This document shows, piece after piece, positions 440-55,766 of a stretch of DNA of 64,000 nucleotides. Both the position numbers and the translations under genes were made by a program. How positions within the stretch are numbered: the first letter of the stretch is position 1; each line of letters starts with the position of its first letter. The notes beneath the pieces were generated by a model. That model did no database searches, was not told the origin of the DNA, and worked only from the letters and a program-made list of their open reading frames with translations. The stretch is from an uncultured Chloroflexia bacterium (lineage in GTDB: Bacteria; Chloroflexota; Chloroflexia; QHBQ01; JADMIH01), in assembly GCA_963797095.1 (NCBI GenBank), contig CAWCNY010000005.1, positions 221,231 to 285,230 of the forward strand, written 5' to 3'.

Positions 440-1696
440 ATGTCCTCCGGAAAATCACGCCGACGCGCGGGAGGCAACCGCAAGGCTCGGCAACCTGCTT
501 CCCAGCAATCCACACAACCAGGAACCTCGCCAACCATGCCCGCAGGCACAGGCGCGCCCGGAGCGCGCTCGCCGCTTGTGCTATGGGGCACAACCATACT
601 TATCGTGCTGGCGATTGCGTTCGTAGCCTTTCTCTTCGTCGCGCAGATAGTCCTGCGGCCACAGGACCCCACCCCCACACCCACCGCCGGTTCAAACACA
701 AACCAAACTTCCGGCGCGTCAACTTCTGCGAGCCGCATTGCCTTCGTGCGCGTACCTGCTGATGGCGGCCCGCGCAATCTGTACGTGGTGAACGCCGACG
801 GCACCAACCAGCAGCAGGTAACCGAAGGCTACGACATCAACGGCACGCCAGCCTGGTCGCCCGACGGCAAAAGCATCCTTATCCAGACCGACATCGACAA
901 AGTAACCACCATAGTTCGTCTGACAATTGGCCCCGACAATAAGATGGCCGACTCGGCCCAACTTACGGCAGACATAAAGGCCGATAGCGTGCTTGCCACG
1001 TGGTCACCTGATGGCAGCATGATCGCCTTCCAATCGAAGCAGGATGGCCCCCTTTCTCAGATATACGTCATGAATACCGACGGCAGCAACAAGCGCCGCG
1101 TGTCCGACGGCAACGGCTTCGCCGGGCAACCGGCCTGGTCTCCCGACAGCAAGATGGTCACTTACGTCTCGGGCGCAGAGCAGGTTGCCGGGGCCGAGCG
1201 CGAGGTCTACATCGCTCCTGTAGATGGTGGAACGCCAACTCAGGTCTCAAGCATCGGCGGGAGTCTCACCAACCCTATCTGGTCGCCCGACGGCAAGACA
1301 ATCGCGTGCTTACAGGTACTTGGCGACCGTGATTACAAGCTTCTCTTGATGAACACCGACGGCGCTAACCTGCGCACCCTCGATGAAGGCCTGGTTATAC
1401 GCGCGCCGAGCTTTTCGCCGGCTGGCGATGCCATAGTTTACTATACGGTCAGCGACGTGAACAACAACATCAACATCTACGACCTGACCACCGACCGCAA
1501 CCTGAGCGTAACCAAGAGCCAGGGTGATAATTACAATCCTGTCTGGTCGCCTGACGGCAGCATGATCGCATGGGCAAGCACGCCTGGCAATTCACCTCAC
1601 AAGATCGCGATTGCAAACCGAGATGGGACCAACCGCCAGACGGTATCGAGCGGCGATGGCGACGATTCCCAGGTAGCGTGGGGCGTTGTGAAGTAG
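440..1696 (+). CDS. Membrane-anchored TolB-like beta-propeller protein with PD40 repeats
   Basis: Basic N-terminal tail followed by one TM helix (LVLWGTTILIVLAIAFVAFLFVA). At least 6 repeats carry the PD40 signature WSPDG (AWSPDGKSI, TWSPDGSMI, AWSPDSKMV, IWSPDGKTI, VWSPDGSMI). Confidence 0.7.
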   Translation: MSSGKSRRRAGGNRKARQPASQQSTQPGTSPTMPAGTGAPGARSPLVLWGTTILIVLAIAFVAFLFVAQIVLRPQDPTPTPTAGSNTNQTSGASTSASRIAFVRVPADGGPRNLYVVNADGTNQQQVTEGYDINGTPAWSPDGKSILIQTDIDKVTTIVRLTIGPDNKMADSAQLTADIKADSVLATWSPDGSMIAFQSKQDGPLSQIYVMNTDGSNKRRVSDGNGFAGQPAWSPDSKMVTYVSGAEQVAGAEREVYIAPVDGGTPTQVSSIGGSLTNPIWSPDGKTIACLQVLGDRDYKLLLMNTDGANLRTLDEGLVIRAPSFSPAGDAIVYYTVSDVNNNINIYDLTTDRNLSVTKSQGDNYNPVWSPDGSMIAWASTPGNSPHKIAIANRDGTNRQTVSSGDGDDSQVAWGVVK

Positions 1697-1724
1697 GGTC
1701 TTCCACATTACCAACGAGACAAGA

Positions 1725-3206
1725 ATGCACAAACCCGGAGCACTCTACACAATATATCTGGCTCTACTTGCGCTTATCATCCTGGTCGCGCTTGCAGCCT
1801 GCGACGCGGCGGGCATCCCCCAATCTGGCACGCCGGAAACCGCTTCAACCTCGACCCCTAAAACGGTTGCCATCGCAGAGCCAACATCTACGGAGAGTCG
1901 CCCGGCACCTGAGCCGACCAACACTTCTGTCGTCGGAGGCTCGTCCCAACACCAGCCTACCGCGACGAGCCCCCGCGCCACCTTTACAGCAGTTGAGCCT
2001 ACAGAGGAACCAACCGCCGAGCCTGCTACCCCGATCTTCAGCGGCGACGAGGCGACACCCACCATCCTACCCGAAGATGAGCGCGTCAGCCTGTTCCAGC
2101 AGGTGTGGGACACCGTTAGCGAACACTACCTTTATCGCGACTTTAACGGACTCGATTGGAACGCGGTGCACGACAAGTACGAGCCTATTGTCCGCAACGC
2201 CAAAACTTCTACGGAGTTCTACAAGGCCATCAGCGACATGGTCGATGAGTTGAACGATGATCACTCGCGCTTCCTGTCACCTGAGGAAAGGCAGGAGGAA
2301 GACGACCTTCAGAGCGGCAACGCCAACTATGTGGGGGTAGGCATCGTTTCGGCACCGGCCGATAAGTCGGTGATGGTGGTCTTCGTCTTTCCGGGAAGCC
2401 CGGCAGGCAAGGCCGGCATAATACGACGCGACCGCATCATGGCAGTGGATGGTAGGCCGATTGAGGACCCGCAAAACATAGCGGACATGATCAGGGGTGA
2501 GGAGGGCACGACTGTCAACCTCACGATCCGCTCGCCTGGACAGGACGAGCGAGTGGTACCTGTCGTGCGCGGCAGAATCACCGGAGCAATTGTACCCTCA
2601 AGCTCGCGCCTGGAACGAGACCCATCAATCGGCTACCTGATCATCCCCGACCTGTGGACCGACGACATGGGCGACCGGGTCGAGAACGAGCTTGACAGCC
2701 TCCTCACAGGAAGCCCTGACCTCAAGGGGCTGGTGGTGGATCTGCGCGGTAACGGTGGCGGCTTCCGCAGCGTGCTGGAACAAATCCTGGGTGACTTTGT
2801 GTCGGGACAGGTTGGCTCATTCTTCGACAGCAAAGCCTCGTACCCGTTCAAAATCACTGCCGGGCCTATGCTGGACAGGCTGAAGGACGTGCCCGTAGTG
2901 ATCCTGGTGGACGGAGGCTCCGAAAGCTACGCTGAGGTCCTGGCCGCATCTATTCAGGAGAAGGGTCGCGCCCAGGTGGTGGGGGTCCACAGCGCGGGCA
3001 ACACAGAAACCATCTACCAGTACAATTTCGACGACGGTTCGCGACTGTGGTGTGCCCAGGAGGGTTTCAAGCTGCTTGACGGCACCAACCTGGAAGGACG
3101 CGGCGTCATCCCCGACTTCGTGATACAGGACGACTGGACGAATTACCCTGAGCGAGACGATCCCGATATCGTCAAAGCCATAGAGTTGCTTACCCACCCC
3201 ACGTGA
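1725..3206 (+). CDS. S41 family C-terminal processing peptidase (CtpA-like, tail-specific protease) with PDZ domain; lipoprotein
   Basis: Lipobox LAACDAAG. PDZ segment GVGIVSAP...FPGSPAGKAGI. S41 core motifs VVDLRGNGGG and ILVDGGSESYAEVLA. Confidence 0.8.
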   Translation: MHKPGALYTIYLALLALIILVALAACDAAGIPQSGTPETASTSTPKTVAIAEPTSTESRPAPEPTNTSVVGGSSQHQPTATSPRATFTAVEPTEEPTAEPATPIFSGDEATPTILPEDERVSLFQQVWDTVSEHYLYRDFNGLDWNAVHDKYEPIVRNAKTSTEFYKAISDMVDELNDDHSRFLSPEERQEEDDLQSGNANYVGVGIVSAPADKSVMVVFVFPGSPAGKAGIIRRDRIMAVDGRPIEDPQNIADMIRGEEGTTVNLTIRSPGQDERVVPVVRGRITGAIVPSSSRLERDPSIGYLIIPDLWTDDMGDRVENELDSLLTGSPDLKGLVVDLRGNGGGFRSVLEQILGDFVSGQVGSFFDSKASYPFKITAGPMLDRLKDVPVVILVDGGSESYAEVLAASIQEKGRAQVVGVHSAGNTETIYQYNFDDGSRLWCAQEGFKLLDGTNLEGRGVIPDFVIQDDWTNYPERDDPDIVKAIELLTHPT

Positions 3207-11962: not shown

Positions 11963-12405
11963 TCAGCAATCTCCTTCAAGATGGTGGGCAGGTCCCGCGC
12001 CAGGTTGGAGTTAGCGAGCACTCGCCCCGCGCCCGCTGCCTTCGCCTTGCGTCGCGCCTCCGTGTCCATGTGCGGCCCGAAAGCCACCACGGGTGTGCCG
12101 CGTTGGGCGGCCTCGCGGGTGGTGGTCTCCCAGTCACCGCGCGATGACAGGTCCACTACCAGCACATCGCCGCCCGGCAGGGGCACACCTGGGCGCAGCA
12201 TCACAGGCTTCAGCCCGGCGTGCCGCGCCATGTTCTGAAGTTGCACCCCGAACATCAGGTCGGTGCACAGCAGGACGGCGATACGCTCTCGCGTCGGCAC
12301 GGTTCCATCCAATGGAGTGCCTGCCTCATCCCGGCTGTTGGTGCTTCTCTGGTTAGCGATCTCTGCCACTCGCGTTAGGGTATCAGAATGCCGGTCCAGC
12401 GTCAA
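11950..12405 (-). CDS. Divergent stand-alone CheY-like receiver domain protein
   Basis: Receiver-like pattern: IAVLLCTDL, DVLVVDLSS, VVAFGPH, AKAAGAGRVL. Overlaps the downstream cupin gene by 13 nt. Confidence 0.4.
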   Translation of the reverse strand: MTLDRHSDTLTRVAEIANQRSTNSRDEAGTPLDGTVPTRERIAVLLCTDLMFGVQLQNMARHAGLKPVMLRPGVPLPGGDVLVVDLSSRGDWETTTREAAQRGTPVVAFGPHMDTEARRKAKAAGAGRVLANSNLARDLPTILKEIAEWGK

Positions 12406-12549
12406 GTTAGGCAGGGCTAATGCAAAGTCAGATAAGACGGTGGGAAAGGCCGCCCATCTCGGCCCTTGTCATTCTTCACTTCGTTCAGAATGACGCATCC
12501 AAACTTGGTGTGTCCGATACCGACTTTGCTTCAGCCCTGCAAGTTAGGC
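12403..12549. repeat. MITE-like small repeat element: 11-bp direct repeats flanking 16-18 bp imperfect inverted repeats around an internal hairpin
   Basis: Direct repeat caagttaggca at 12403-12413 and 12539-12549. Inverted repeats cagggctaatgcaaagtc and gactttgcttcagccctg. Internal hairpin gtcattct-N11-agaatgac at 12468-12494. A related copy lies at 58535-58607. Confidence 0.5.
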
Positions 12550-12643
12550 ACCAAATCTTGCCAGGATCGCCTGAGTGCTATAGTATTATGGTGGGTGGCT
12601 TTGCAATTTGCCCACCGCCCGAAGGTGAGGATATCCCGCTCGC

Positions 12644-14428
12644 ATGAGAAAAGCTGATATTCTTGACGACCAGCAAGCACAGGTGCGCGCCGCCGAACGC
12701 GAGGCTCTGAGCGCGCTCTCCTCGGCCATCGCGCCTCTCGAACCCGATGATGCAGATGTGGCTTCGCTTCGGCAGGCCGAGGCGGACCTTGAGGAGCTTT
12801 TCCTGTTGGTCGTTGTGGGGGAGTTCAATTCGGGCAAGTCCTCATTCATCAATGCGCTGCTGGGCCAGGAGGTGCTCCCGGAAGGGGTCACACCCACCAC
12901 CGCTACGATCAGTCTGCTACGATACGGTACGTCGGTGACTGAACACCAGGTGGCCGATTTCGTCACCGAGCGTACCTATCCAGCCGAGTTCCTGCGCGAG
13001 ATCAGCATCGTGGACACGCCCGGCACTAACGCGATCATACGCCGCCACGAGGAATTGACGCGCACCTTCGTGCCTCGCTCGGACATGGTGCTCTTCATTA
13101 CATCGGCGGACCGCCCTTTCACCGAATCGGAGCGGTCATTCATGGAGACGATACGGGAGTGGGGCAAGAAGATCGTGCTGGTGCTGAACAAGATCGATCT
13201 GCTGGGCAGCGAGGACGATCTCAATCGCGTACTCCACTTCATCGAGGAGAACAGCGTGGCCCTGCTGGGCCAGAAACCCGACGTGTTCCCCGTGTCGGCG
13301 CGGCTCGCCAAGCGCGCCCGCTCTACCGATACGTTCGCCGAGCGCGAAGCCCTGTTGCGAGCCAGCCGCATGGACGCGCTGGAGCATTACATATTCTCGA
13401 CCTTGGACGAGGCAGGGCGCATACGCCTGAAGCTCTCGACACCGCTGGGTGTTGCCAATCGAACGCTCGAAAAGTACCAGGAGATCGCACATGAGCGGCT
13501 GGACGTGCTGGCCGAAGATTTCAAGACCGTGCAGAACATCGAGGATCAGCTTCGCATCTACTCGGAAGATATGCATCGCGAGTTCGAGGGCAGGCTCGCC
13601 AACATCGAAAACATCATCTTTGAATTGAAGGAGAGGGGCGACATCTTCTTCAACGAGACGCTGCGTATCGGTCGCATACGCGACCTGCTGAACGCCAAGA
13701 AGGTCGAAAGCGATTTCCAGAAGCAGGTGCTGGCCGACACCGCCCAGCGCGTGGACGATGCCACCAACGGCCTCATAGATTGGATGGTGGACCAGGACCT
13801 GCGGATGTGGCAATCGGTGACCGACTACGTCAACCGCCGTCAGGCTGTGGGGGTGGGGGCGTCGCAGGGCTACCAGGAGCGAGTGATGGGAGGAACTGGC
13901 ATGACGGGCGTGGCGGGCTTCGCCTACAACCGCGATGCTCTGTTGCGGTCGGTTGTGAAGGAGGCCCGCCACGTGGTGGAGAACTACGACCGCGAGGAAG
14001 AGGCCACCATCATAGCGCAGGATATGCGCAACGCCGTCGGCGTGATGCTTGGGGCAGGTGGGGTAGCCGCGCTGGGCGTGCTGGTGGCGGCTACTGTTAC
14101 GGTAGCTTTCCTGGATGTTACCGGCATAACGGCGGCCATCCTCGCGGGGGCTATCGGCCTCTTTATCCTCCCGTACCGGAAGCGGAAGGCGCAGGAAGAA
14201 TTCCGGGCACGCACGCAGGAATTGCGCGATAAGCTAAGTAGCGCCATGACCTCACAGTTCAACTCGGAGCTTACCCGCTCTATCGAGCGGATACGTGACG
14301 CCATCGCGCCCTATACTCGCTTCGTGCGCCTTGAGCAGGAACGAGTTTCGAAAGCGGACAGTAGCCTCTCCGAAGTGGCGCGCAAGCTCACTGCCTTGCG
14401 CGGCCAGATTGAGACCATCGGGAGGTAA
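12644..14428 (+). CDS. Bacterial dynamin-like protein (large GTPase with membrane paddle)
   Basis: G1 GEFNSGKSSFINAL, G2 T, G3 DTPG, G4 NKID. C-terminal hydrophobic hairpin GVMLGAGGVAALGVLVAATVTVAF...ILAGAIGLFILPY. Confidence 0.8.
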   Translation: MRKADILDDQQAQVRAAEREALSALSSAIAPLEPDDADVASLRQAEADLEELFLLVVVGEFNSGKSSFINALLGQEVLPEGVTPTTATISLLRYGTSVTEHQVADFVTERTYPAEFLREISIVDTPGTNAIIRRHEELTRTFVPRSDMVLFITSADRPFTESERSFMETIREWGKKIVLVLNKIDLLGSEDDLNRVLHFIEENSVALLGQKPDVFPVSARLAKRARSTDTFAEREALLRASRMDALEHYIFSTLDEAGRIRLKLSTPLGVANRTLEKYQEIAHERLDVLAEDFKTVQNIEDQLRIYSEDMHREFEGRLANIENIIFELKERGDIFFNETLRIGRIRDLLNAKKVESDFQKQVLADTAQRVDDATNGLIDWMVDQDLRMWQSVTDYVNRRQAVGVGASQGYQERVMGGTGMTGVAGFAYNRDALLRSVVKEARHVVENYDREEEATIIAQDMRNAVGVMLGAGGVAALGVLVAATVTVAFLDVTGITAAILAGAIGLFILPYRKRKAQEEFRARTQELRDKLSSAMTSQFNSELTRSIERIRDAIAPYTRFVRLEQERVSKADSSLSEVARKLTALRGQIETIGR

Positions 14429-47460: not shown

Positions 47461-48642
47461 TCAAGGGCAGCCCGCAGGCAGGTCGGCACCCTTGGCAGGG
47501 GACACACATGTCTTCACCGACCCATCCAGGATCCCCTGAGTAGCTACGTCTACCTTCGACTTAGCATCGGCAGACACTGCCGCTTCCTGATCGTGGTACG
47601 GAGCCAACCCAACCGTCCCTGTCACGTTGCCACCCTTGAACGTCCCATCTTGCACCGACTTGATTATGTCGAACACTCCAGGTGTGAGCAGCTTCATGGC
47701 GCTCGATACCAGCGCTCCCTTGTACTCGTCACCAATGGTGAAGTACTGGTCGGCGTCCACACCTATCGCCAGCACGTTGCGTTCCTTGGCAGCGAAGATA
47801 GCGCCGTTACCTGTCTGTCCACCTGCTCCGAACACTACGTCAGCGCCTTTGTCTATCATTGAGAGAGCGGTGGTCTTGCCCCACTCAGGGTCCACAAACG
47901 TCTTGGTGATGTCTACATCGCTGTGGTAAGTAACCTGCACCGTCACATCAGGATTGACCGACTTGGCGCCGTTCTTGTATCCTTCGCAGTATCTCCACAC
48001 CGGTGGCACATCATCTGTTCCGCACACAGCACCGATGTTACCCGTTTTGGATACAGCCGCCGCCAGAACACCCGCCAGATACCCCGCCTTGTCCTCATCA
48101 AAGACCAAACCGGCGAGGTTATCGATGGTATCGGTCTGCGCCTGGTCCACCCCGATGAACTTGATGTTAGGGTTCGCTTTGGCGGCAGCGATGGTCGCTT
48201 CACCCAACGCAAAGCCAACCGTCACGATAACATCGTAGCCTTCAGACACGAACTGGTTGATGTTCTTCTCGTAATCCTTCGTGTCAACGGTCTCGATAGC
48301 CTTGGCATCAACACCCAGGTCAGATTGAGCCTGTTGCACACCTTCCCACGAAGACTGGTTGAACGACTTGTCGTTCAGACGCCCAACGTCTGTTACCAAC
48401 CCGACCTTTAGCGTGCTGCTCGACGTGCCCTGCGTCGCGGTCGGCTGTGTGCTCGTCCCCGTAGTGGCTGTAGGTTCCGCCGCTGCCGTTGTCGCCGTCG
48501 CCGGTGGCGGTGCAGTTGTAGCAGTCGGTACAATAGGTGTTGCCGTAGGGTCCGCGCCACAAGCAGATAGAATCGGCAATACAATCATCGCCAGCGTCGT
48601 AAGCACACCGGCGCGCCGAATCAAACGCCTTTCTTTAGACAT
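47461..48642 (-). CDS. BMP family (PnrA-like) ABC transporter substrate-binding lipoprotein
   Basis: Lipobox ILSACG. Thr/Ala/Pro linker. BMP core KVGLVTDVGRLNDKSFNQSSWEG. Strong RBS aggagg upstream of the ATG at 48642. Confidence 0.8.
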   Translation of the reverse strand: MSKERRLIRRAGVLTTLAMIVLPILSACGADPTATPIVPTATTAPPPATATTAAAEPTATTGTSTQPTATQGTSSSTLKVGLVTDVGRLNDKSFNQSSWEGVQQAQSDLGVDAKAIETVDTKDYEKNINQFVSEGYDVIVTVGFALGEATIAAAKANPNIKFIGVDQAQTDTIDNLAGLVFDEDKAGYLAGVLAAAVSKTGNIGAVCGTDDVPPVWRYCEGYKNGAKSVNPDVTVQVTYHSDVDITKTFVDPEWGKTTALSMIDKGADVVFGAGGQTGNGAIFAAKERNVLAIGVDADQYFTIGDEYKGALVSSAMKLLTPGVFDIIKSVQDGTFKGGNVTGTVGLAPYHDQEAAVSADAKSKVDVATQGILDGSVKTCVSPAKGADLPAGCP

Positions 48643-48686
48643 AACCTTTCCTCCTGATTCACTCAGATTAAAACCACACGCCCAAA

Positions 48687-48702
48687 CCGGCATATATGCC
48701 GG
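48687..48702. promoter_or_regulatory. Perfect 16-bp palindrome CCGGCATATATGCCGG in the 5' UTR of the BMP transporter operon (candidate operator)
   Basis: Lies between the minus-strand promoter (TTGACT-16-TATAAT, plus coordinates 48724-48751) and the substrate-binding-protein start. Confidence 0.4.
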
Positions 48703-48723: not shown

Positions 48724-48751
48724 ATTATATCACGCACTCCCGGCAAGTCAA
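48724..48751 (-). promoter_or_regulatory. Sigma-70-like promoter for the BMP ABC operon
   Basis: Minus strand reads TTGACT, a 16-nt spacer, then TATAAT. Confidence 0.5.
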
Positions 48752-48788: not shown

Positions 48789-48817
48789 TTGACACTCTCA
48801 CAATCGCGCTGTATACT
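48789..48817 (+). promoter_or_regulatory. Sigma-70-like promoter driving the SAM riboswitch / ask-metX-metY operon
   Basis: TTGACA (48789-48794), a 17-nt spacer, then TATACT (48812-48817). Confidence 0.55.
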
Positions 48818-48854
48818 CATAGCAGTCTTTGAGCTTTCACAATAGAATAGCAAC

Positions 48855-48960
48855 CAGGCTCTTATCAAGAGAGGTGGAGGGATACGGCCCTATGAAGCCC
48901 GGCAACCAGACCAACGGTGGTCCAGGTGCCAACTCCGACAGAGCGATCTGTAAGATGAGG
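48855..48960 (+). promoter_or_regulatory. SAM-I (S-box) riboswitch aptamer
   Basis: ctcTTATCAAGAGaGGtGGAGGGAtacGGCCCtATGAAgCCCGGCAACC...GGTGCCAActCC...aAGATGAG is a near-consensus S-box core, including the P1 strands CUCUUAUC/GAUGAG. Confidence 0.8.
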
Positions 48961-48993
48961 GAGTGGTTGGTCTGGCGCTACGCGCACATGCCT

Positions 48994-49019
48994 GCCCCTC
49001 ACCTTGAGGGGTTCTTTTT
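48994..49019 (+). terminator. Riboswitch expression-platform terminator
   Basis: gcccctca-cct-tgagggg followed by ttcttttt. The alternative antiterminator aagaUGAGGG would pair with CCCUCA. Confidence 0.7.
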
Positions 49020-49068
49020 ATCCCTCAAAGTGAGTGAGCCGGACTGAGCAATATGGAGAATTCGACCA

Positions 49069-49095
49069 ACGCCCCTTCGCTGGGCGTTTTTGTTT
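49069..49095 (+). terminator. Second terminator-like hairpin upstream of the aspartokinase start
   Basis: aacgccc-cttcgct-gggcgtt followed by tttgttt, about 30 nt before the ask start. Confidence 0.45.
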
Positions 49096-49126
49096 GCCCA
49101 ATTTTCATGATACAGGGTGCAGCATA

Positions 49127-50494
49127 GTGAGTTTTGTAGTACAAAAGTATGGCGGTACATCGGTGGCGACCACCGAACGCATCCGGGCGGTTGCCCACCG
49201 CATTCGCGCTCGCCACGATCAAGGCGACCGGTTGGTGGTGGTGGTGAGCGCTATGGGCAACACCACCGACGACCTGTTGGCCCTTGGACTCTCCCTCAAC
49301 CCACAGGCCTATGGTCGCGAAGTCGATCTGCTTATGTCCACGGGCGAGGTGGTGTCCTGCGCCCTCCTGGCCCTTGCTCTGCAAGACCTGGGTGTGCCCG
49401 CCCGCGCATTCACCGGCGCACAGGCGGGCATCCTCACCGACGGCAATTTCAGCAGGGCCGCCATCGCCGGTCTGAAACCCGACCGCCTCCAAGCCTCCCT
49501 GGCAATCGGCGAGGTGCCGGTAGTAGCCGGCTTCCAGGGCATAAGTGGCACCGACATCGAGATCGAAGTAACAACCCTCGGTCGTGGCGGCTCCGATACC
49601 ACCGCCGTTGCCCTCGCCGCAGGCTTACACGCTGAAAGGTGCGAAATCTATACCGACGTGGACGGTATCTTTACCGCCGACCCGCGTGTGGTCCCAGGCG
49701 CTCGCCGCCTGTCGCGTATCACGCCTACCGAGATGCTGGAGCTTGCTCAGCAAGGCGCTCAGGTAATGCACCCCCGCGCCGTCGAGCTTGGCGGCATCTA
49801 CAACATACCAATCCGGGTGGCCTCCAGCTTCAACGATGGGCCGGGCACATGGATCATAGCGCCCGGTTCGCCCCTACCGGCAATATATGGACCTGCCTTT
49901 CACACTCTTTCTCACAATCTGGAGGAGCAATTGGAGCTAAAGAACAAAGTCTCAGGCATAGCCCACGATACTAACGTGGCCCGCATAACAGTCTTCGGCC
50001 TCCCCAGGCCCCAGTTCGCCCTCTTCCGTCTCTTCGGCCCCCTGGCCGAGGCTGGCATCAACGTCGACGCCATAGCTCATTCAATCGAGCCGGGCGGCGA
50101 GCATGCCGACTGCTCGTTTACCGTCACCGAGTCCGATCTCACCCGCGCTTTGTCGATCACCCGGCATACAGCCACCAACCTGGGCGCGTACAACGTCCAA
50201 GGCGAGCGCGCCGTAGGCAAAGTCTCCGTCATCGGCCTCGGTGTGCAACACGTACCCGGCCTCGCCTGCCACGCTTTCGCCGCCCTTGAAAGCGCGGGCA
50301 TAGAGATCGACATGGTCACTACCTCGCAGGTACGTATTACCTGCCTGGTCCTCGAATCGCGGGTCGTTGAGGCCGCGCTGCTCTTGCACTCCGCTTTCGG
50401 CCTCGACGGGGAGCCAACAAGCGACACGCATCTCAAACCGGACATCATCGCCCCTGCACTGGCAGGCGTGCTCACCCCAGGGGGTGGAGCATGA
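49127..50494 (+). CDS. ask: Aspartate kinase with C-terminal ACT domains
   Basis: GTG start just before VVQKYGGTSV. AK motifs VVSAMGNTTD and two ACT-like repeats. The ORF-track 5' extension covers the terminators and is not coding. Confidence 0.8.
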   Translation: MSFVVQKYGGTSVATTERIRAVAHRIRARHDQGDRLVVVVSAMGNTTDDLLALGLSLNPQAYGREVDLLMSTGEVVSCALLALALQDLGVPARAFTGAQAGILTDGNFSRAAIAGLKPDRLQASLAIGEVPVVAGFQGISGTDIEIEVTTLGRGGSDTTAVALAAGLHAERCEIYTDVDGIFTADPRVVPGARRLSRITPTEMLELAQQGAQVMHPRAVELGGIYNIPIRVASSFNDGPGTWIIAPGSPLPAIYGPAFHTLSHNLEEQLELKNKVSGIAHDTNVARITVFGLPRPQFALFRLFGPLAEAGINVDAIAHSIEPGGEHADCSFTVTESDLTRALSITRHTATNLGAYNVQGERAVGKVSVIGLGVQHVPGLACHAFAALESAGIEIDMVTTSQVRITCLVLESRVVEAALLLHSAFGLDGEPTSDTHLKPDIIAPALAGVLTPGGGA

Positions 50495-51699
50495 CTGTAC
50501 AATCCTCCGGCCTGATCGACCTGACATTCCTCGACGACGATCCTTCTGTCGCCCTACGACCCCTCGCCGTCGAGGCAGACGATGTGCCGGTCGGCCCCAG
50601 GCATCTATGGACCCTCCCCGAAGGTCTCCGCCTGGAATCCGGCGCGCACCTCGCGCCCATCGAAGTAGCCTACGAGACCTGGGGCCACCTCAACGCAACA
50701 GGCGACAACGCGATACTCGTCTGCCATGCCCTCACTGGCGACTCCCACGCTGCCGGTAGATACTCCCCCGATGACGACCACCTCGGCTGGTGGGACCCCC
50801 TGATCGGCCCCAACCGCGCCTTCGATACAAATCGCTACTTCGTGGTGTGCGCCAACGTGCTCGGCGGCTGCCAGGGCACCACAGGCCCCGCGTCGATCAA
50901 CCCTGGCACGGGCCGCCCCTATGGCAGCGTCTTCCCCCAGGTCACAGTGCGCGACATCGTGCGCCTCCAATACAGCCTTCTATGCGCGTTGGGTGTCCGG
51001 CGTCTGGCGGCGGTCGCGGGCGGCTCGCTCGGCGGGATGCAGGTGCTGGAGTGGCTCGTTACATACCCCGGCTTCGTCGCCAAAGCCATCCCCATAGGCT
51101 CTTCTCTCGCCCACACCTCGCAGGGCATAGCCTACAACCTGGTGGGACGCCAGGCTATTATGCTCGACCCCGATTGGCAAGGTGGCGACTACTACGGCAC
51201 AGACCGGTCCCCTGGGCGTGGCCTCTCAATCGCTCGCATGGTCGGCATGATCACCTACCAGAGCGAGGAGTCGATGCGACGCAAGTTCGCAAGGGACCGT
51301 GTAGACCCTTCGCCCGACTCGTATTACGATCCCGACAGCCTCTTCCAGGTTGAAAGCTATCTCCACTACCAGGGCGCATCTCTCGTCAAACGTTTCGACG
51401 CCAACAGCTACCTGCTCCTTTCCAGGGCAATGGACCTGCACGACATAGGCCGCTCTCGCGGTGGCGTAGACGAAGCGCTATCCCGCATAAGCCCCACCAC
51501 AGACACCCTTTTGATAGGCATCAACAGCGACATCCTTTTCCCCACCCACCACCAGCGCGAAACAGCTGGCCGCCTGACTGCCTCAGGCCACAACGCAACC
51601 TACACAGAGATAGATTCCCCATGGGGCCACGATGCCTTCCTGATAGAATACAACCAGCTAGCCTCAGCAATAGCCAATTTCATTGGAATTGACGAGTGA
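50491..51699 (+). CDS. metX: Homoserine O-acetyltransferase MetX
   Basis: Alpha/beta hydrolase with GGSLGGMQ nucleophile. MetX N-terminal pattern. ATGA overlap with ask. Confidence 0.85.
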   Translation: MTVQSSGLIDLTFLDDDPSVALRPLAVEADDVPVGPRHLWTLPEGLRLESGAHLAPIEVAYETWGHLNATGDNAILVCHALTGDSHAAGRYSPDDDHLGWWDPLIGPNRAFDTNRYFVVCANVLGGCQGTTGPASINPGTGRPYGSVFPQVTVRDIVRLQYSLLCALGVRRLAAVAGGSLGGMQVLEWLVTYPGFVAKAIPIGSSLAHTSQGIAYNLVGRQAIMLDPDWQGGDYYGTDRSPGRGLSIARMVGMITYQSEESMRRKFARDRVDPSPDSYYDPDSLFQVESYLHYQGASLVKRFDANSYLLLSRAMDLHDIGRSRGGVDEALSRISPTTDTLLIGINSDILFPTHHQRETAGRLTASGHNATYTEIDSPWGHDAFLIEYNQLASAIANFIGIDE

Positions 51700-51754
51700 C
51701 GAGTGACGAGTGGCGAGTACCGCTGCACACTCGCTACGCGTCACTCGTCCTCAC
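51691..51754. repeat. Tandem heptamer array (GACGAGT x3-4) with downstream inverted copy, overlapping the last codons of metX
   Basis: gacgagtgacgagtgacgagtggcgagt ... acactcgct..tcactcgtc forms a hairpin in the metX-metY spacer. Confidence 0.7.
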
Positions 51755-51787
51755 CTACCCCATTTCACACCTCGGAGAAACATAACC

Positions 51788-53047
51788 ATGACTGACACTC
51801 AATCCAACAGCACCGGAAGAGCAGCGGGCTTCGCCACCAGGGCGGTACGCTCCGGCCTAAACCCACCGCTTGAGGGCACACGACCCACCGCAGTGCCCAT
51901 CTACGCTACCACCACCTTTCTCAGCGACGACGCCCAGGCTCTCGACGGCGTGCTCGGAGGCTCACTACCGGGCTACGTCTACGGACGCTACGGCAACCCA
52001 ACCCTTACTTCTCTCGAAAACGCCGTGTCCGCCCTTTTGGACGCGCCCGAAAATACCACAGTCGCCTTCAGCAGCGGCATGGCCGCCTTGCACGCCGCGC
52101 TCCTCCTCTGCGAATTAGAGCCTGGCGCGACCATCCTCGCGGGCACCGAGCTTTACGGAGCGAGCCACACCCTTCTCGCCACCCTGTTCGGCCAGTTCGA
52201 GGTGCAGATACGCTTTGCCGACATGTCCAATCTGGAAGAGGTACGCCAGGCCCTCAATACCCTGCCCACCCCTCGCGTAGTCCTCTTTGAAACGATTTCC
52301 AACCCTCTTATCAGGGTAGCCGACGTGCCCGCCATCTGCGAGGCCGCCCATGCCGCGGGCGCGCCCGCCATCGTAGACACCACCTTCACCCCTCCGCCCC
52401 TGGTGCAGCCCCTTGCTCACGGAGCCGACATTGTCGTGCAGAGCGCTACAAAGTACATCGGAGGCCACGGCGATGTGGTCGGCGGCCTTGTAACTGTGGC
52501 CGACCCCGATCGCGTCGCCACCCTGCGCCAGATATCGAAACTAACGGGCGCGATCCTCGGCCCCTTCGAAGCGTTCCTTATAGCGCGCGGCCTCCGCACC
52601 CTCGTACTCCGCGTCACCAAACAAAGCGAAAACGCCGCTATCCTGGCTCGCAGGCTTGCGGAACTCCCCCAGGTCGCCAGGGTGCATTATCCCGGCCTCC
52701 CCAATCACCCGCAGCACGAATTGGCGGGCAGGCTCCTTGTCCGCCCGCTCTTTGGCGCGATGCTGGCGTTCGAGATCGAGGGCGCGACCTACGAAGATGT
52801 GCTCGCCTTCTTCGACAGCCTCAAGCTGGCCCTGCCAGCCACCACCCTGGGCGATATCTACACCGAGGTGTCCTACCCCCTGATGTCGAGCCATCGCGAG
52901 TGGTCGCCAGCCCAGTTGCGCCGCGCAGGCATCACCCCCGGCGTGGTACGCGTCTCCGTAGGCATCGAGGATATCGACGATATAGTGGCCGATTTCGAGC
53001 AAGCCCTTGCAAAGCTGGAAAGCCGGATCGCAGCCCCCACCCGATAG
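51788..53047 (+). CDS. PLP-dependent O-acetylhomoserine sulfhydrylase / cystathionine gamma-synthase family enzyme (MetY/MetB)
   Basis: PLP-Lys motif SATKYIGGHGDVVGG. Cys/Met-metabolism PLP fold. Start at MTDTQSN with RBS ggag upstream. Confidence 0.8.
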   Translation: MTDTQSNSTGRAAGFATRAVRSGLNPPLEGTRPTAVPIYATTTFLSDDAQALDGVLGGSLPGYVYGRYGNPTLTSLENAVSALLDAPENTTVAFSSGMAALHAALLLCELEPGATILAGTELYGASHTLLATLFGQFEVQIRFADMSNLEEVRQALNTLPTPRVVLFETISNPLIRVADVPAICEAAHAAGAPAIVDTTFTPPPLVQPLAHGADIVVQSATKYIGGHGDVVGGLVTVADPDRVATLRQISKLTGAILGPFEAFLIARGLRTLVLRVTKQSENAAILARRLAELPQVARVHYPGLPNHPQHELAGRLLVRPLFGAMLAFEIEGATYEDVLAFFDSLKLALPATTLGDIYTEVSYPLMSSHREWSPAQLRRAGITPGVVRVSVGIEDIDDIVADFEQALAKLESRIAAPTR

Positions 53048-53050
53048 CCG

Positions 53051-54517
53051 CTACGACCTCAGCGCCTTCGCTAGCGCTCCGGTTCCGCGCCTCGCCGACG
53101 CAATACGCTCCCGTTGCTCAACGATCCAGTGCGAGTGCTTACCCAGCGCGCTCCGCCTCGCCTCAAGCATCCTCGCCATCTCGTCGGGTGCTGCACCTCC
53201 CACGTGCTTGCGCTTTGTGACGGCCCACTCAGGATCAAGGGCCTCTCGCACCTGCTCCTCACTAACCTCGATCTTCACGCCAACCGCCTCCGCGCCCGCT
53301 CTTATCTGCTCGGCGGTTATGCTGTGAAGCGGCCTCCCCTCCTCGATCATCGCGTCCACTATCCGGCCAACGATGCCATAAACTTGCCTGTACCCGACCC
53401 CGCTCTGCTGCGCGACGACGTCCGCAAGGTCCGTGGTGCTCGAATAGTTGTCCCGTACCGCCTGCAACATCCGCTCCCGGTTCACCGAAAGGGTGGACAG
53501 CGTCGTGCTCACAGTAGATAGAGCCGCCAGCGTCTTGTCAAAGCCGAGCGCCGTCCACTCCTTGATCTCCCGCGAGTCCCGGTTATAACCCATCGGCAGC
53601 CCCGCGAGCAGGTGGCCAGCCGTTGCCGCTATCCCTATAACCTCCTGGCCCGTGGCCCGCAACAACTCCAGCGCGTCAGGGTTCTTCTTCTGCGCCATCA
53701 CCGAGCTACCCGTGATCGGGTGCAGACGCTGCGCCACCGCCTCCCCCAATTCGATATATCCGTACTCCCAGGTGGTAAAGAGCAGCAAATCGGCGACCAT
53801 CTTGCTAACCGTAAGCGCCAACCGTTTGCACACGTCCAGGTAGGCCAGTTGAGGCAGCCCACGCGACCCAATAACGTCCTGCGGCACCTCCCAGACCCTC
53901 CCAAACCCCAGCAGTTGGGCAGTAAACTCCCTATCTATCGGCCACGAAGTGCCGTAGCTCTCAACCGCCCCCAGCGGGCAGGTATCGTACTCGTCCCATG
54001 TGTGTTCGATATCCGAGAGGCTGCGCGCAATCGCGTCCGCGTACCCAAGCGCCCACTGTCCGAGCGTAGTAGGCTTGGCGGGCTGCATATGCGTATATCC
54101 GGGCATCACCGTCCCAACGTGCTCCTCGACCAGGCCCAATAAGGCCCCCACCACCCCACACGTAGCCCTCGCCAGCGCCAGCGCCCGCTCCCGCAAAAAG
54201 AGCATTTCCGTCACCATCACCTGGTCGTTGCGGCTCCGCGCCGTGTGCATCCGGCTGCCGTCCTGCACCCCCGCCGCCTCGATCACCGCACGTTCCAGGC
54301 TAAGTTGTGCTCCCCGCTCCGGGTCGATCCGAAACTCCCCAGCCTCCACAGCCCCCTCGACATCGTCCAACGCTGCCAGTATCGAAACCGCCGCCTGCGC
54401 AGGAATGATCCCGACATGCTGTAGCATCAAAACATGGGCCAGCGTGCCCCAGATATCGTACCGAAGCATCTCGGTATCAAGCGCCACCTGGGCCGCGCTA
54501 ACGATAAAACCGCCCAT
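53051..54517 (-). CDS. argH: Argininosuccinate lyase
   Basis: Fumarate-lyase signature GSSVMAQKKNPDALE. Start taken at MGGFIV (54517); the ORF-track N-terminal extension translates heptamer repeats. Confidence 0.85.
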   Translation of the reverse strand: MGGFIVSAAQVALDTEMLRYDIWGTLAHVLMLQHVGIIPAQAAVSILAALDDVEGAVEAGEFRIDPERGAQLSLERAVIEAAGVQDGSRMHTARSRNDQVMVTEMLFLRERALALARATCGVVGALLGLVEEHVGTVMPGYTHMQPAKPTTLGQWALGYADAIARSLSDIEHTWDEYDTCPLGAVESYGTSWPIDREFTAQLLGFGRVWEVPQDVIGSRGLPQLAYLDVCKRLALTVSKMVADLLLFTTWEYGYIELGEAVAQRLHPITGSSVMAQKKNPDALELLRATGQEVIGIAATAGHLLAGLPMGYNRDSREIKEWTALGFDKTLAALSTVSTTLSTLSVNRERMLQAVRDNYSSTTDLADVVAQQSGVGYRQVYGIVGRIVDAMIEEGRPLHSITAEQIRAGAEAVGVKIEVSEEQVREALDPEWAVTKRKHVGGAAPDEMARMLEARRSALGKHSHWIVEQRERIASARRGTGALAKALRS

Positions 54518-54522
54518 CTCCA

Positions 54523-54557
54523 GATTTTGGATTTTGGATTTTGGATTTTGGATTTGA
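54523..54557. repeat. Tandem heptamer repeat (GATTTTG) x4.9 immediately upstream of the argH start
   Basis: gattttg gattttg gattttg gattttg gatttga. Confidence 0.9.
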
Positions 54558-54601
54558 CCCGTCATAATATCACTCGTCACTCGCCGCTCACCATTCACCC
54601 T

Positions 54602-54671
54602 CCGACTACCGACTACCGACTACCGACTACCGACTACCGACTACCGACTACCGACTACCGACTACCGACTA
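54602..54671. repeat. Tandem heptamer repeat (CCGACTA) x10, the reverse complement of the GGTAGTC array at 20586
   Basis: Perfect 10 copies filling most of the argF-argH intergenic region. Flanked by cactcgtcactcg (two GTGACGA-type units). Confidence 0.9.
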
Positions 54672-55766
54672 CCATCTCCCCACCAAGCTAGCCAGCAACG
54701 CGTTCTGCGCGTACATCCGGTTCGCCGCCTCCTGAACCACGATGCTGGCCGGGCTATCGAGCACACCATCCGTAACTTCCACGTTGCGGCGAGTGGGCAG
54801 GCAGTGCATGAACCGCCCGCTGTTCGTAAGCGCCATGATCTCCTCGTTCACGATCCAGTGCTTCAACCCTTCGCGGATTGCCTTTTCAGCCTCCCAATCC
54901 CCGTAATGACTGATCGCGCCCCAACTCTTGGCGCAAATCACTTCAGCCCCCTGCGCAGCCTGCGTCATATCATGGCTGATCGTCAGCGAGCCTCCCGCCT
55001 GCGCGGCTCTCGCATGGGCCGTCGCCATCACATCCGCGTCCAGGTCCCAACCTTCGGGAAACGCCAGCGTAACATCACAACCCATATCGCAAGCGGCCAG
55101 CAATTGCGAATGAGGCGTGGCGGTGGGCAATGCCTTAGGGTGATTTGCCCACGTCAGCACATACTTCTTCCCCTGCGTCTGCCCAAGTTGCTCCCTCAAT
55201 GTAAGAGCATCCCCCAATCCCTGGCATGGGTGGAACGCGTTCGATTCCAGGTTGATTACGGGCACGGAAGCGTACTTCGCGAAGCTTCTCACAATCGTAT
55301 CCTTGCGCGCCTCCTCCCACGTTGCCGACGAATTGCTCGTCTTGCCACTCGTAGTAATCAACTCGCTCGATCTTACTCCTAGCGCGTCGCAATATTCGGC
55401 CAGCACCGGAGCGGCCTCCTTGATGTGCTCCTGCGTCGCCCCGTTCATCACCACCCCATCCTCAAACTCGAACACATACGTCCCCGACAGATCGAGCGCC
55501 GTCCCGCCCATTCGAGCTATCCCGGCACCAAGCGATGTCTTGGTCCGAAGTGAAGGGTTGAAGAACACCATCCCAACCACAATTCCCCGCAACAATTGTC
55601 GCCCATACCCCTCCTGCTTCAAGCTCAAGGCCCGCTCCACAAGCTCAACAAACGCCTCCTGCGGCATCTCGGCACTATTGAGATAATCTTTCCCGGCGAA
55701 GGAATATGCCCCTTGCGCGCCCTGGTTCGCATTGATCTGTTCTATAGTATCTGTAATCGCAACCAT
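54669..55766 (-). CDS. ATCase/OTCase-superfamily carbamoyltransferase with non-canonical SLRTK motif (ornithine or acyl-ornithine carbamoyltransferase)
   Basis: HCLP motif (FMHCLPTRRN). Carbamoyl-phosphate site FFNPSLRTKTS replaces the canonical STRTR. 365 aa. Sits in the arg operon. Confidence 0.7.
   Translation of the reverse strand: MVAITDTIEQINANQGAQGAYSFAGKDYLNSAEMPQEAFVELVERALSLKQEGYGRQLLRGIVVGMVFFNPSLRTKTSLGAGIARMGGTALDLSGTYVFEFEDGVVMNGATQEHIKEAAPVLAEYCDALGVRSSELITTSGKTSNSSATWEEARKDTIVRSFAKYASVPVINLESNAFHPCQGLGDALTLREQLGQTQGKKYVLTWANHPKALPTATPHSQLLAACDMGCDVTLAFPEGWDLDADVMATAHARAAQAGGSLTISHDMTQAAQGAEVICAKSWGAISHYGDWEAEKAIREGLKHWIVNEEIMALTNSGRFMHCLPTRRNVEVTDGVLDSPASIVVQEAANRMYAQNALLASLVGRW

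Follow-up and report, generated by a model that had tools for sequence, protein, structure and literature searches.

One SAM-I aptamer and two terminator-like hairpins in the leader of an aspartate kinase-headed methionine operon of Chloroflexota

The 64,000-nucleotide stretch of DNA analysed here (contig CAWCNY010000005.1, hereafter the window) holds an S-adenosylmethionine (SAM) riboswitch of the SAM-I class directly upstream of a methionine operon whose first gene, ask, encodes an aspartate kinase. The host is a Chloroflexota bacterium, and the nearest proteins are likewise from Chloroflexota. Two terminator-like hairpins, T1 and T2, separate the aptamer from ask (Table 1). Such an arrangement is uncommon among riboswitches and raises the question of whether the one aptamer governs both of them. 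The original prediction described T2 as independent. Our results point the other way: the 5' side of T2 is as complementary as that of T1 to the 3' strand of aptamer helix P1 and its extension (the switching strand S), so that the two hairpins are probably coupled and, by the predicted pairings, one aptamer would gate both terminators. We give a probability of about one half to the reading that this leader is a transcription-terminating SAM-I riboswitch in which S serves antitermination at T1 and at T2, ahead of an operon of the methionine branch.

We start with the aptamer. The Rfam model RF00162 matches the leader with 80.7 bits (gathering score 44.4, E-value 2e-17) over model positions 1-108 of 108, and this is the sole Rfam match in the 64-kb window. 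The alignment to the consensus of the family contains the SAM-I core (AUCAAGAG, GGUGGAGGGA, GGCCC, AUGAAGCC, GGCAACC, and GGUGCCAA) and the four-way junction of P1-P4; all four helices are formed, with four positions flagged as non-canonical. Judged by its sequence, the aptamer is a genuine and ordinary member of its class. The Rfam scan thus bears out the original prediction of a near-consensus S-box aptamer, here after a TTGACA-17-TATACT promoter, and the listed sequence elements all occur where they had been placed. The aptamer begins 41 nt past the -10 box, transcription would start near 48824, and comparable TTGAC(A)-N17-TATAAT-like promoters occupy the same relative position in the relatives described below. 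As expected for SAM-I, the aptamer lies in a 5' leader ahead of genes of sulfur, methionine, or SAM metabolism, here metX and a pyridoxal phosphate (PLP) enzyme of Cys/Met metabolism. Mutually exclusive antiterminator and terminator structures using the P1 3' strand are also found in silico: the pairing of UGAGGG with CCCUCA, put forward earlier, is present and extends to 17 bp. The predicted probability of T1 in the window is 0.17 without the P1 5' strand and 0.93 with P1 locked.

The layout was compared in 11 complete leaders, namely the window, L001, L088, L090, L092, L093, L094, L096, L097, L099, and L100. A scan of genome contigs provided one close relative (L001), and most of the other leaders come from contigs encoding related proteins. 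All 11 have a SAM-I match of 80.6-85.4 bits directly upstream of ask, together with T1 and T2. Both hairpins are also visible in a further leader, on the truncated contig L098, so that the layout recurs in all relatives of this ask clade whose upstream DNA could be read. The finding of T1 and T2 in 12/12 related leaders places their presence beyond chance and means that, as far as predicted hairpins tell, a platform of two intrinsic terminators behind one aptamer is kept in all of them. A local search for hairpins ahead of T-runs recovered T2 in 11/11 complete leaders and T1 in 10; in L001 the T1 hairpin is present with an interrupted U-tract (CUUCUUCGU) and was placed by hand.

In the window, T1 consists of GCCCCTCACCTTGAGGGGT followed by TCTTTTTATC. 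Folded alone it reaches -13.1 kcal/mol (z -3.4). The longest run in its tail, UUCUUUUUAU, is five U; of the hairpin with a T6 tail that had been described, the hairpin stands and the tail does not. The second terminator-like hairpin, announced about 50 nt further on and before the GTG of ask, is indeed there: T2 (AACGCCCCTTCGCTGGGCGTT followed by TTTGTTTGCC) starts 55 nt past the end of T1, and its U-tract ends approximately 30 nt before the start codon. Folded alone, T2 has an energy of -10.9 kcal/mol (z -1.7), which is only marginally better than shuffled sequences. Its stem varies among leaders (CGCCC/GGGCG, GCCGCCC/GGGCGGC, CCGCUCC/GGGGGCGG, GCCCCUGC/GCAGGGGC), as does its energy (-7 to -27 kcal/mol), and a run of U always stands 3' of the stem. 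Since these stems always form, are always followed by the U run, and differ in sequence, we consider T2 a real, selected element. RNAalifold was uninformative on this region, since loops of unequal length cause MAFFT to misalign the 3' arms.

How could one aptamer act on both hairpins? The element that would allow it is S, UAAGAUGAGGGAGUGGUUGGUCUG. Full-leader folds revealed an extension of P1, which we call P0, where UGGUUG after P1 pairs with CAACCA just before it. In P0 and P1 together, 95.5% of the cells are paired, as against 40-52% when the partner is slid. The sequence directly past P1, GGGAGTGGTTGGT, is identical in 8 of the 11 distinct leaders, the window counted. We used S as an RNAduplex query and took windows of coding sequence as background. 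The duplexes of S in the window have -20.6 kcal/mol for the 5' strand of P0/P1, -17.8 for the T1 5' side, and -20.6 for that of T2. Each leader offers S these three partners at comparable strength: over the 11 leaders the duplexes range from -17.7 to -21.9 kcal/mol for P0/P1 (background fraction <=0.05 in 10/11), from -16.5 to -21.1 for T1 (8/11), and from -14.7 to -21.6 for T2 (9/11). When the 73 terminator-like hairpins of the window were compared in their pairing with S, the 5' side of T2 came 2nd (-20.6 kcal/mol) and that of T1 4th (-17.3), the mean being -11.5 with a standard deviation of 3.9. These ranks argue that the match to S is not merely a trait of GC-rich terminator arms.

The most serious competitor of this reading is a T2 that works as a constitutive, SAM-independent attenuator or fail-safe, which would lower expression by a fixed factor or catch transcripts leaking through T1. 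Its S complementarity would then be a by-product of the origin of T2 by duplication of the T1 module, and the 5' sides of the two hairpins are indeed alike (ACCUGCCCCUCA and ACCAACGCCCCUUC). The sequence just outside the hairpin speaks against it. The 5' flank and arm of T2, ACCAACGCCCC, are exact in the window and in six distinct relatives, in a spacer that is otherwise unconserved. The GACCAAC flank lies beyond the T2 stem and is not required for the hairpin, yet it is complementary to the invariant GUUGGUC of S. Where the motif changes, pairing tends to persist: the GACCAGC variant of L094 retains it through a G-U pair, and L096, with changes in S (GGGGUGGU) as well as in the arm of T2 (ACCGCUCC), keeps 12 bp.

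The energy balance of T2 is a further argument against a constitutive hairpin. We define poise as the energy difference between two enforced states, the antiterminator minus the closed aptamer with terminator. It amounts to +2.9 +/- 2.5 kcal/mol for T1 in all 11 leaders and to between -3.0 and +6.5 kcal/mol (mean about +1.5) for T2 in the nine leaders that have the motif. The balance between T2 and its antiterminator is as near zero as that of T1, so T2 appears to be no less finely balanced than T1, the accepted switch. When the P1 5' strand is removed, the predicted probability of T2 drops from 0.82-0.97 to 0.00-0.11 in the window, L001, and L093. Moreover, a fixed partial terminator leaves the on/off ratio unimproved, and its retention throughout the clade is hard to explain.

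Several observations weigh on the other side. Part of the complementarity between S and T2 (GGG:CCC) is expected for any GC-rich terminator arm. Changes in P0 are one-sided and of the G-U type, with a shifted register in L100 (CACCA:UGGUG), and no two-sided covariation of P0 was found in the MAFFT register of the 11 leaders. S and GACCAAC are nearly invariant, which leaves too little variation for a statistical test of the second antiterminator. Equilibrium folds predict that T2 melts in a SAM-dependent manner in no more than 3-4 of the 11 leaders; when left unconstrained, they give T2 in both states in 7-8. The same method finds SAM-dependent melting of T1 in only 4-5. L097 and L100 have a far stronger T2 (-20.8 and -27.1 kcal/mol) and no GGUUGGUC/GACCAAC motif. 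A good antiterminator for T2 is not seen in them, the second antiterminator being unfavourable by 10-13 kcal/mol. The models thus suggest that T2 may be constitutive at least in these two leaders. Finally, the one published precedent for a single aptamer with two terminators behaves in this manner. It is the cyclic di-GMP-I riboswitch Bc1 of the Bacillus cereus group, which has two rho-independent terminators, a layout that its authors call rarely seen, and in which T2 stays folded upon ligand binding (PMC11218506).

The comparison with Bc1 (PMC11218506) also brings out differences. Both leaders have one aptamer, a long expression platform, and two terminators that lie tens of nucleotides apart and are conserved in their clade, but the aptamer classes are unrelated and the ligands differ. 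Only T1 of Bc1 unfolds with ligand while its T2 remains intact and masks the response, whereas both 5' sides complement S here and both appear poised. In addition, T2 of Bc1 affects translation (PMC11218506), while T2 of our leader lies at least 30 nt upstream of the start codon. Overall, we regard a constitutive T2 as somewhat unlikely. If it were constitutive, what is left would be a conventional S-box leader that carries one more attenuator.

In the coupled reading, S would be used a second time after it has served at T1. The leaders contain a candidate for its release, a hairpin that the RNA can form once T1 has been passed (H2). Its duplex has -17.1 kcal/mol in the window, where no background window equals it, and from -17 to -21 kcal/mol in nine leaders, with a background fraction of 0.000 in 7/11 and <=0.05 in 9/11. 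H2 covaries with T1, as seen in L093 (CUCUCUGG with CCAGACGAGG) and L096 (CCUCAUCG with CGAUGAGG). In equilibrium folds at the decision point of T2, H2 supplants T1 in 9 of the 11 leaders, whether P1 is locked or not. By these models, H2 would sequester both arms of T1 after passage of the polymerase, free S from the first antiterminator, and keep the G-rich 3' arm of T1 off the 5' arm of T2.

From these elements we infer the following order of events, including termination at either hairpin. With SAM bound, S would be held by its 5' partner in P0/P1, T1 would form and halt most transcripts, and a polymerase leaking past it would meet T2, also formed. Without SAM, S would first form antiterminator 1 by pairing with the T1 5' side, and the polymerase would read through. 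The sequence past the U-tract of T1 would then fold onto both T1 arms as H2, thereby releasing S. At this point, S could either reclose P1, which would amount to a second check of SAM, or use a GUC:GAC toehold to form antiterminator 2, in which it is paired with GACCAAC and the T2 5' arm, so that transcription proceeds into ask. One aptamer would in this way check SAM twice in succession, making the off state tighter and the response steeper. We advance this full scheme, in which S is reused after an H2 reset by toehold strand displacement through the P1 extension, tentatively and at slightly less than even odds. If true, such a design would gain the sharpness and low leak that a tandem riboswitch offers, with no need of a second aptamer. 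It would then be relevant to riboswitch mechanism, in particular co-transcriptional strand displacement and the re-use of switching strands, and to synthetic RNA devices. In more general terms, two terminators answering to one aptamer would be a compact natural route to greater dynamic range and steepness.

In tandem riboswitches, such as those with two thiamine pyrophosphate units or with SAM plus adenosylcobalamin, one complete unit of aptamer and terminator is followed by another. Our leader shares with them the presence of two termination checkpoints, for which a tighter or more digital response is expected. It differs in having a single aptamer, with no second one detected by Rfam at the gathering or E-value threshold, and a short, unconserved spacer between T1 and T2. 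We searched the literature and found no description of two terminators sharing one switching strand. The yitJ/metI-type SAM-I attenuators of Bacillus and Clostridium (RF00162) have the same aptamer family, matched here over its full length, and the same off-switch logic, with P1 as anti-antiterminator and its 3' strand pairing with the terminator 5' arm. The kind of pathway is also the same, since SAM-I upstream of metX, metY, metA, and hom is well documented. Unlike them, the present leader has two sequential terminators, both complementary to S, instead of one, as well as the conserved extension P0, the conserved T1-refolding hairpin, and an aspartate kinase as first gene.

The nature of this first gene makes a second signal conceivable. 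Aspartate kinases are commonly under lysine or threonine control, riboswitches with two inputs in tandem exist, and the spacer of 45-75 nt between T1 and T2 could house a small element. T2 could thus be the platform of an independent input acting in series with SAM, be it a protein, a tRNA, or a metabolite such as lysine or threonine. We find this improbable. A scan of positions 48960-49140 at E-values up to 10 returned no Rfam family, only noise with a best score of 16 bits. The spacer is unconserved in sequence and length, save for the H2 strand and GACCAAC, and has no G-rich segment that could pair with the 5' arm of T2; candidates for pairing with that arm are limited to S and the 3' arm of T1, both tied to SAM status. 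The operon is also specific to methionine. A second aptamer between T1 and T2, which would have made the leader a tandem riboswitch, was rejected given the lack of an Rfam match in the E-value scan and of conservation in the spacer.

A mainly post-transcriptional T2 has a similarly low probability in our assessment. The hairpin would then act on the read-through mRNA, for example by stabilizing its 5' end, by serving as a site of processing, or by modulating the access of ribosomes. In keeping with this, its core in the window has only 5 GC pairs (-7.2 kcal/mol), the ribosome-binding site of ask is weak, and an alternative hairpin would join the 3' arm of T2 to the sequence past the U-tract. 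A complement analogous to this alternative hairpin was seen by eye in L090, L092, L096, and L098 and in none of the other leaders. Against it stand the U-tract of T2, with five to seven consecutive U in 11/12 leaders (only UUUU in L100), and the position of the hairpin, which stops 30-55 nt short of the start codon, with the ribosome-binding site left uncovered.

Attenuation by a leader peptide is effectively refuted: a 24-codon open reading frame (ORF) at 49053-49127 (MENSTNAPSLGVFVCPIFMIQGAA) does cross T2 and overlap the GTG of ask in the window, so that ribosomes might melt T2, and the same frame is open across T2 in L094 and L088, where it ends in an ATGA overlap, but the ORF is not conserved in L092 (TAA in the T2 loop), L001 (TAA immediately upstream and no start codon), or L090 (another frame), no convincing ribosome-binding site precedes 49053, and the shared stop is a simple consequence of ask beginning with a conserved Met-Ser (ATG-AGY).

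Other pairings were tried as antiterminators or switching elements. In a relay, the 3' arm of T1 would be the antiterminator of T2. The complementarity is strong in most leaders, but in L092, L099, and L096 a change in the T1 arm has no counterpart in T2 and the complementarity is gone; since this arm would also be captured earlier by H2, we judged it less likely than S. Pairing of GGUUGGUC with GACCAAC alone is not enough, as the folds stack it beside T2 with the GC core intact, and only the full S covers the T2 arm. In the window, L088, L001, and L094, GUGGUUGGUC might act as an anti-P3 strand by binding CAGACCAAC of that helix. Such a role is not general because P3 does not have that sequence in L090, L092, L093, and L099.

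Why would SAM control an aspartate kinase? The original prediction found this notable because the enzyme is normally controlled by lysine and threonine. The arrangement is present, and it turns out to be less paradoxical than claimed. The kinases of the clade are 57-76% identical to that of the window, have approximately 430-480 amino acids, and carry an insertion between the kinase and ACT domains. The gene orders, on contigs of which some are truncated, are ask-metX-PLP, ask-asd-metX-hom-PLP, ask-metX-asd, and, on truncated contigs, ask-asd. This ask falls into a separate clade of Chloroflexota kinases, encoded in every case by the first gene of a methionine operon. For comparison, nearly all loci obtained in a scan of metagenomes were canonical ask, and Rfam found no riboswitch in five of five such loci (L008, L009, L016, L018, and L021), nor in L035, where ask directly follows thrB. 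Contig L097 has both types. Its second ask (513-1916, minus strand, 467 amino acids, a length like that of E. coli LysC) stands beside a GHMP (homoserine) kinase gene and is only 32-34% identical to the riboswitch-linked one. No second ask was found within the 64-kb window. If ask belongs to a methionine-dedicated clade of paralogues, SAM control can be explained without SAM throttling the whole aspartate family.

Pathway-dedicated ask paralogues such as lysC with its lysine riboswitch are likewise placed under a sensor of the end product of their branch and encoded with the genes of that branch; here the sensor is for SAM and the branch leads to methionine. We found no paper linking SAM-I to ask, and a prior description of SAM control of ask is possible. 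A catalogue by Sun et al. 2013 (PMC3766115), whose main-text table covers 24 taxonomic groups, lists 11 SAM-regulated orthologues of methionine biosynthesis, neither ask nor asd among them. In the five Chloroflexi that it includes, SAM riboswitches stand upstream of metYX and metH, among others, and not of ask (PMC3766115). Our observations would push the SAM regulon further upstream, into the entry steps of the aspartate pathway, with ask and, in relatives, asd. They also mark a clade of methionine-dedicated aspartate kinases in Chloroflexota, which aids the annotation of pathways in these mostly uncultured genomes.

The operon of the window was described as ask-metX-metY, and the first two assignments hold. 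The aspartate kinase exceeds the cutoff of NF005155 (462.3 bits against 346) and has AA_kinase and ACT domains. Its frame opens at 49034, and the alignment with 26 relatives, which start with M-[ST]-L-I-V-Q-K-Y-G-G, puts the start at GTG 49127. The deposited protein P0001 (443 amino acids) begins 12 codons past this GTG (49127-49165) and does not include the VQKYGG motif; its start was probably miscalled. MetX is assigned by the equivalog model NF001209, its score with TIGR01392 being below the cutoff of that model (459 against 500). The third gene exceeds the cutoff of no NCBIfam model, and the MetY model TIGR01326 matches it in two stretches with 315.9 bits against a cutoff of 495.1. Its best relatives in the PDB are methionine gamma-lyases (MGL) and MetB (cystathionine gamma-synthase, CGS), and solved MetY structures rank lower and align in two stretches. 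From its sequence it is not a canonical MetY, and the name metY is a functional guess and not a family assignment. We presume that it acts as an O-acetylhomoserine thiolyase, i.e., in the synthesis of homocysteine or cystathionine. The three genes are co-directional, with an ATGA overlap between the stop of ask and the start of metX (50491-50494) and a gap of 10 nt between metX and the third gene (51700-51709). A convergent argH follows at 53051-54598, which limits the operon to three genes.

Table 1. Positions of the leader elements and operon genes in the window.
Feature	Position	Strand	Basis or remark
Sigma-70-type promoter, TTGACA-17-TATACT	48789-48817	+	11/12 consensus positions matched
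72-amino-acid ORF, non-coding	48829-49047	+	overlies aptamer and T1; single-nucleotide indels in relatives
Conserved 5'-leader motif CACAATAGAATA, consensus ACAAC[T/C]GAATA	48839-48850	+	kept in 11/11 leaders
P0 5' strand CAACCA, extension of P1	48851-48856	+	pairs with UGGUUG 48965-48970
SAM-I (S-box) aptamer, helices P1-P4	48859-48961	+	Rfam RF00162
Switching strand S, UAAGAUGAGGGAGUGGUUGGUCUG: P1 and P0 3' strand plus GUC overhang	48951-48974	+	three alternative partners
Antiterminator-1 partner of S, 5' side of T1	from 48987	+	RNAduplex
Terminator T1, predicted stem-loop 48994-49012 and U-rich tail UCUUUUUAU	48994-49021	+	hairpin search, folding, conservation
Post-T1 hairpin H2, T1 loop and 3' arm (49000-49012) with AUCCCUCAA and GUG (49020-49032)	49000-49032	+	T1 U-tract left in loop
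Antiterminator-2 partner of S, GACCAAC flank, T2 5' arm, and loop start CGACCAACGCCCCUUCGCU	49063-49081	+	RNAduplex 16 bp, -20.6 kcal/mol, background fraction 0.002
Terminator T2, predicted stem-loop 49068-49088 (GC core 49070-49086) and U-tract UUUUUGUUU	49068-49097	+	12/12 related leaders, arm sequences vary
Alternative hairpin, T2 3' arm (UGGGCG) with UGCCCA past the U-tract	49081-49100	+	H2-like, low confidence
ask, monofunctional aspartate kinase, two ACT domains	49127-50494	+	GTG start 49127
metX, homoserine O-acetyltransferase	50491-51699	+	NF001209, 487.7 bits, cutoff 331
Cys/Met-metabolism PLP enzyme, CGS/MGL type	51710-53047	+	PF01053, 374.7 bits

The surroundings of these features deserve a few remarks. 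The short ORF that overlies the aptamer had been called non-coding, and the indels inside it in relatives agree with this. The conserved ACAAC(T/C)GAATA motif lies between the presumed transcription start and P0. We sought a pairing partner for it (ACAACUGAAUA) within the leaders and found none that is consistent across the 11. A tandem 7-mer in three copies (GACGAGT GACGAGT GACGAGT, 51691-51711) spans the stop of metX and the start of the PLP-enzyme gene.

Some operons of the clade are longer. That of L088 (ask-asd-metX-hom-PLP) runs on into genes for a JAB/MPN protease and a ThiS/ThiF/rhodanese protein (12324-13386), and the SAM-controlled operon on the contig of P0005 extends to genes for a JAB protein and a DUF4395 protein. 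The JAB/ThiS-type genes in these two operons suggest a synthesis of homocysteine from a protein thiocarboxylate sulfur carrier. The operon of the window contains no JAB, ThiS/ThiF/rhodanese, or DUF4395 gene.

Arginine genes adjoin the methionine operon of the window on its downstream side: argH and a gene for N-acetylornithine carbamoyltransferase at 53051-55766 (minus strand). Arginine genes are also near the operon in two relatives, with argG in L094 (5889-8290) and L095 (7014-7380), and a gene of the ornithine carbamoyltransferase (OTCase) family in L094 as well. These gene positions suggest conserved synteny. On the upstream side, a divergent extended -10 promoter (TTGACT-16-TG-TATAAT, 48724-48751, minus strand) faces an operon for a BMP-family ABC transporter (47461-48693, minus strand), made of a substrate-binding protein and permeases. 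As it lies opposite the promoter of the ask leader, the two back-to-back promoters share an intergenic region of 430 nt.

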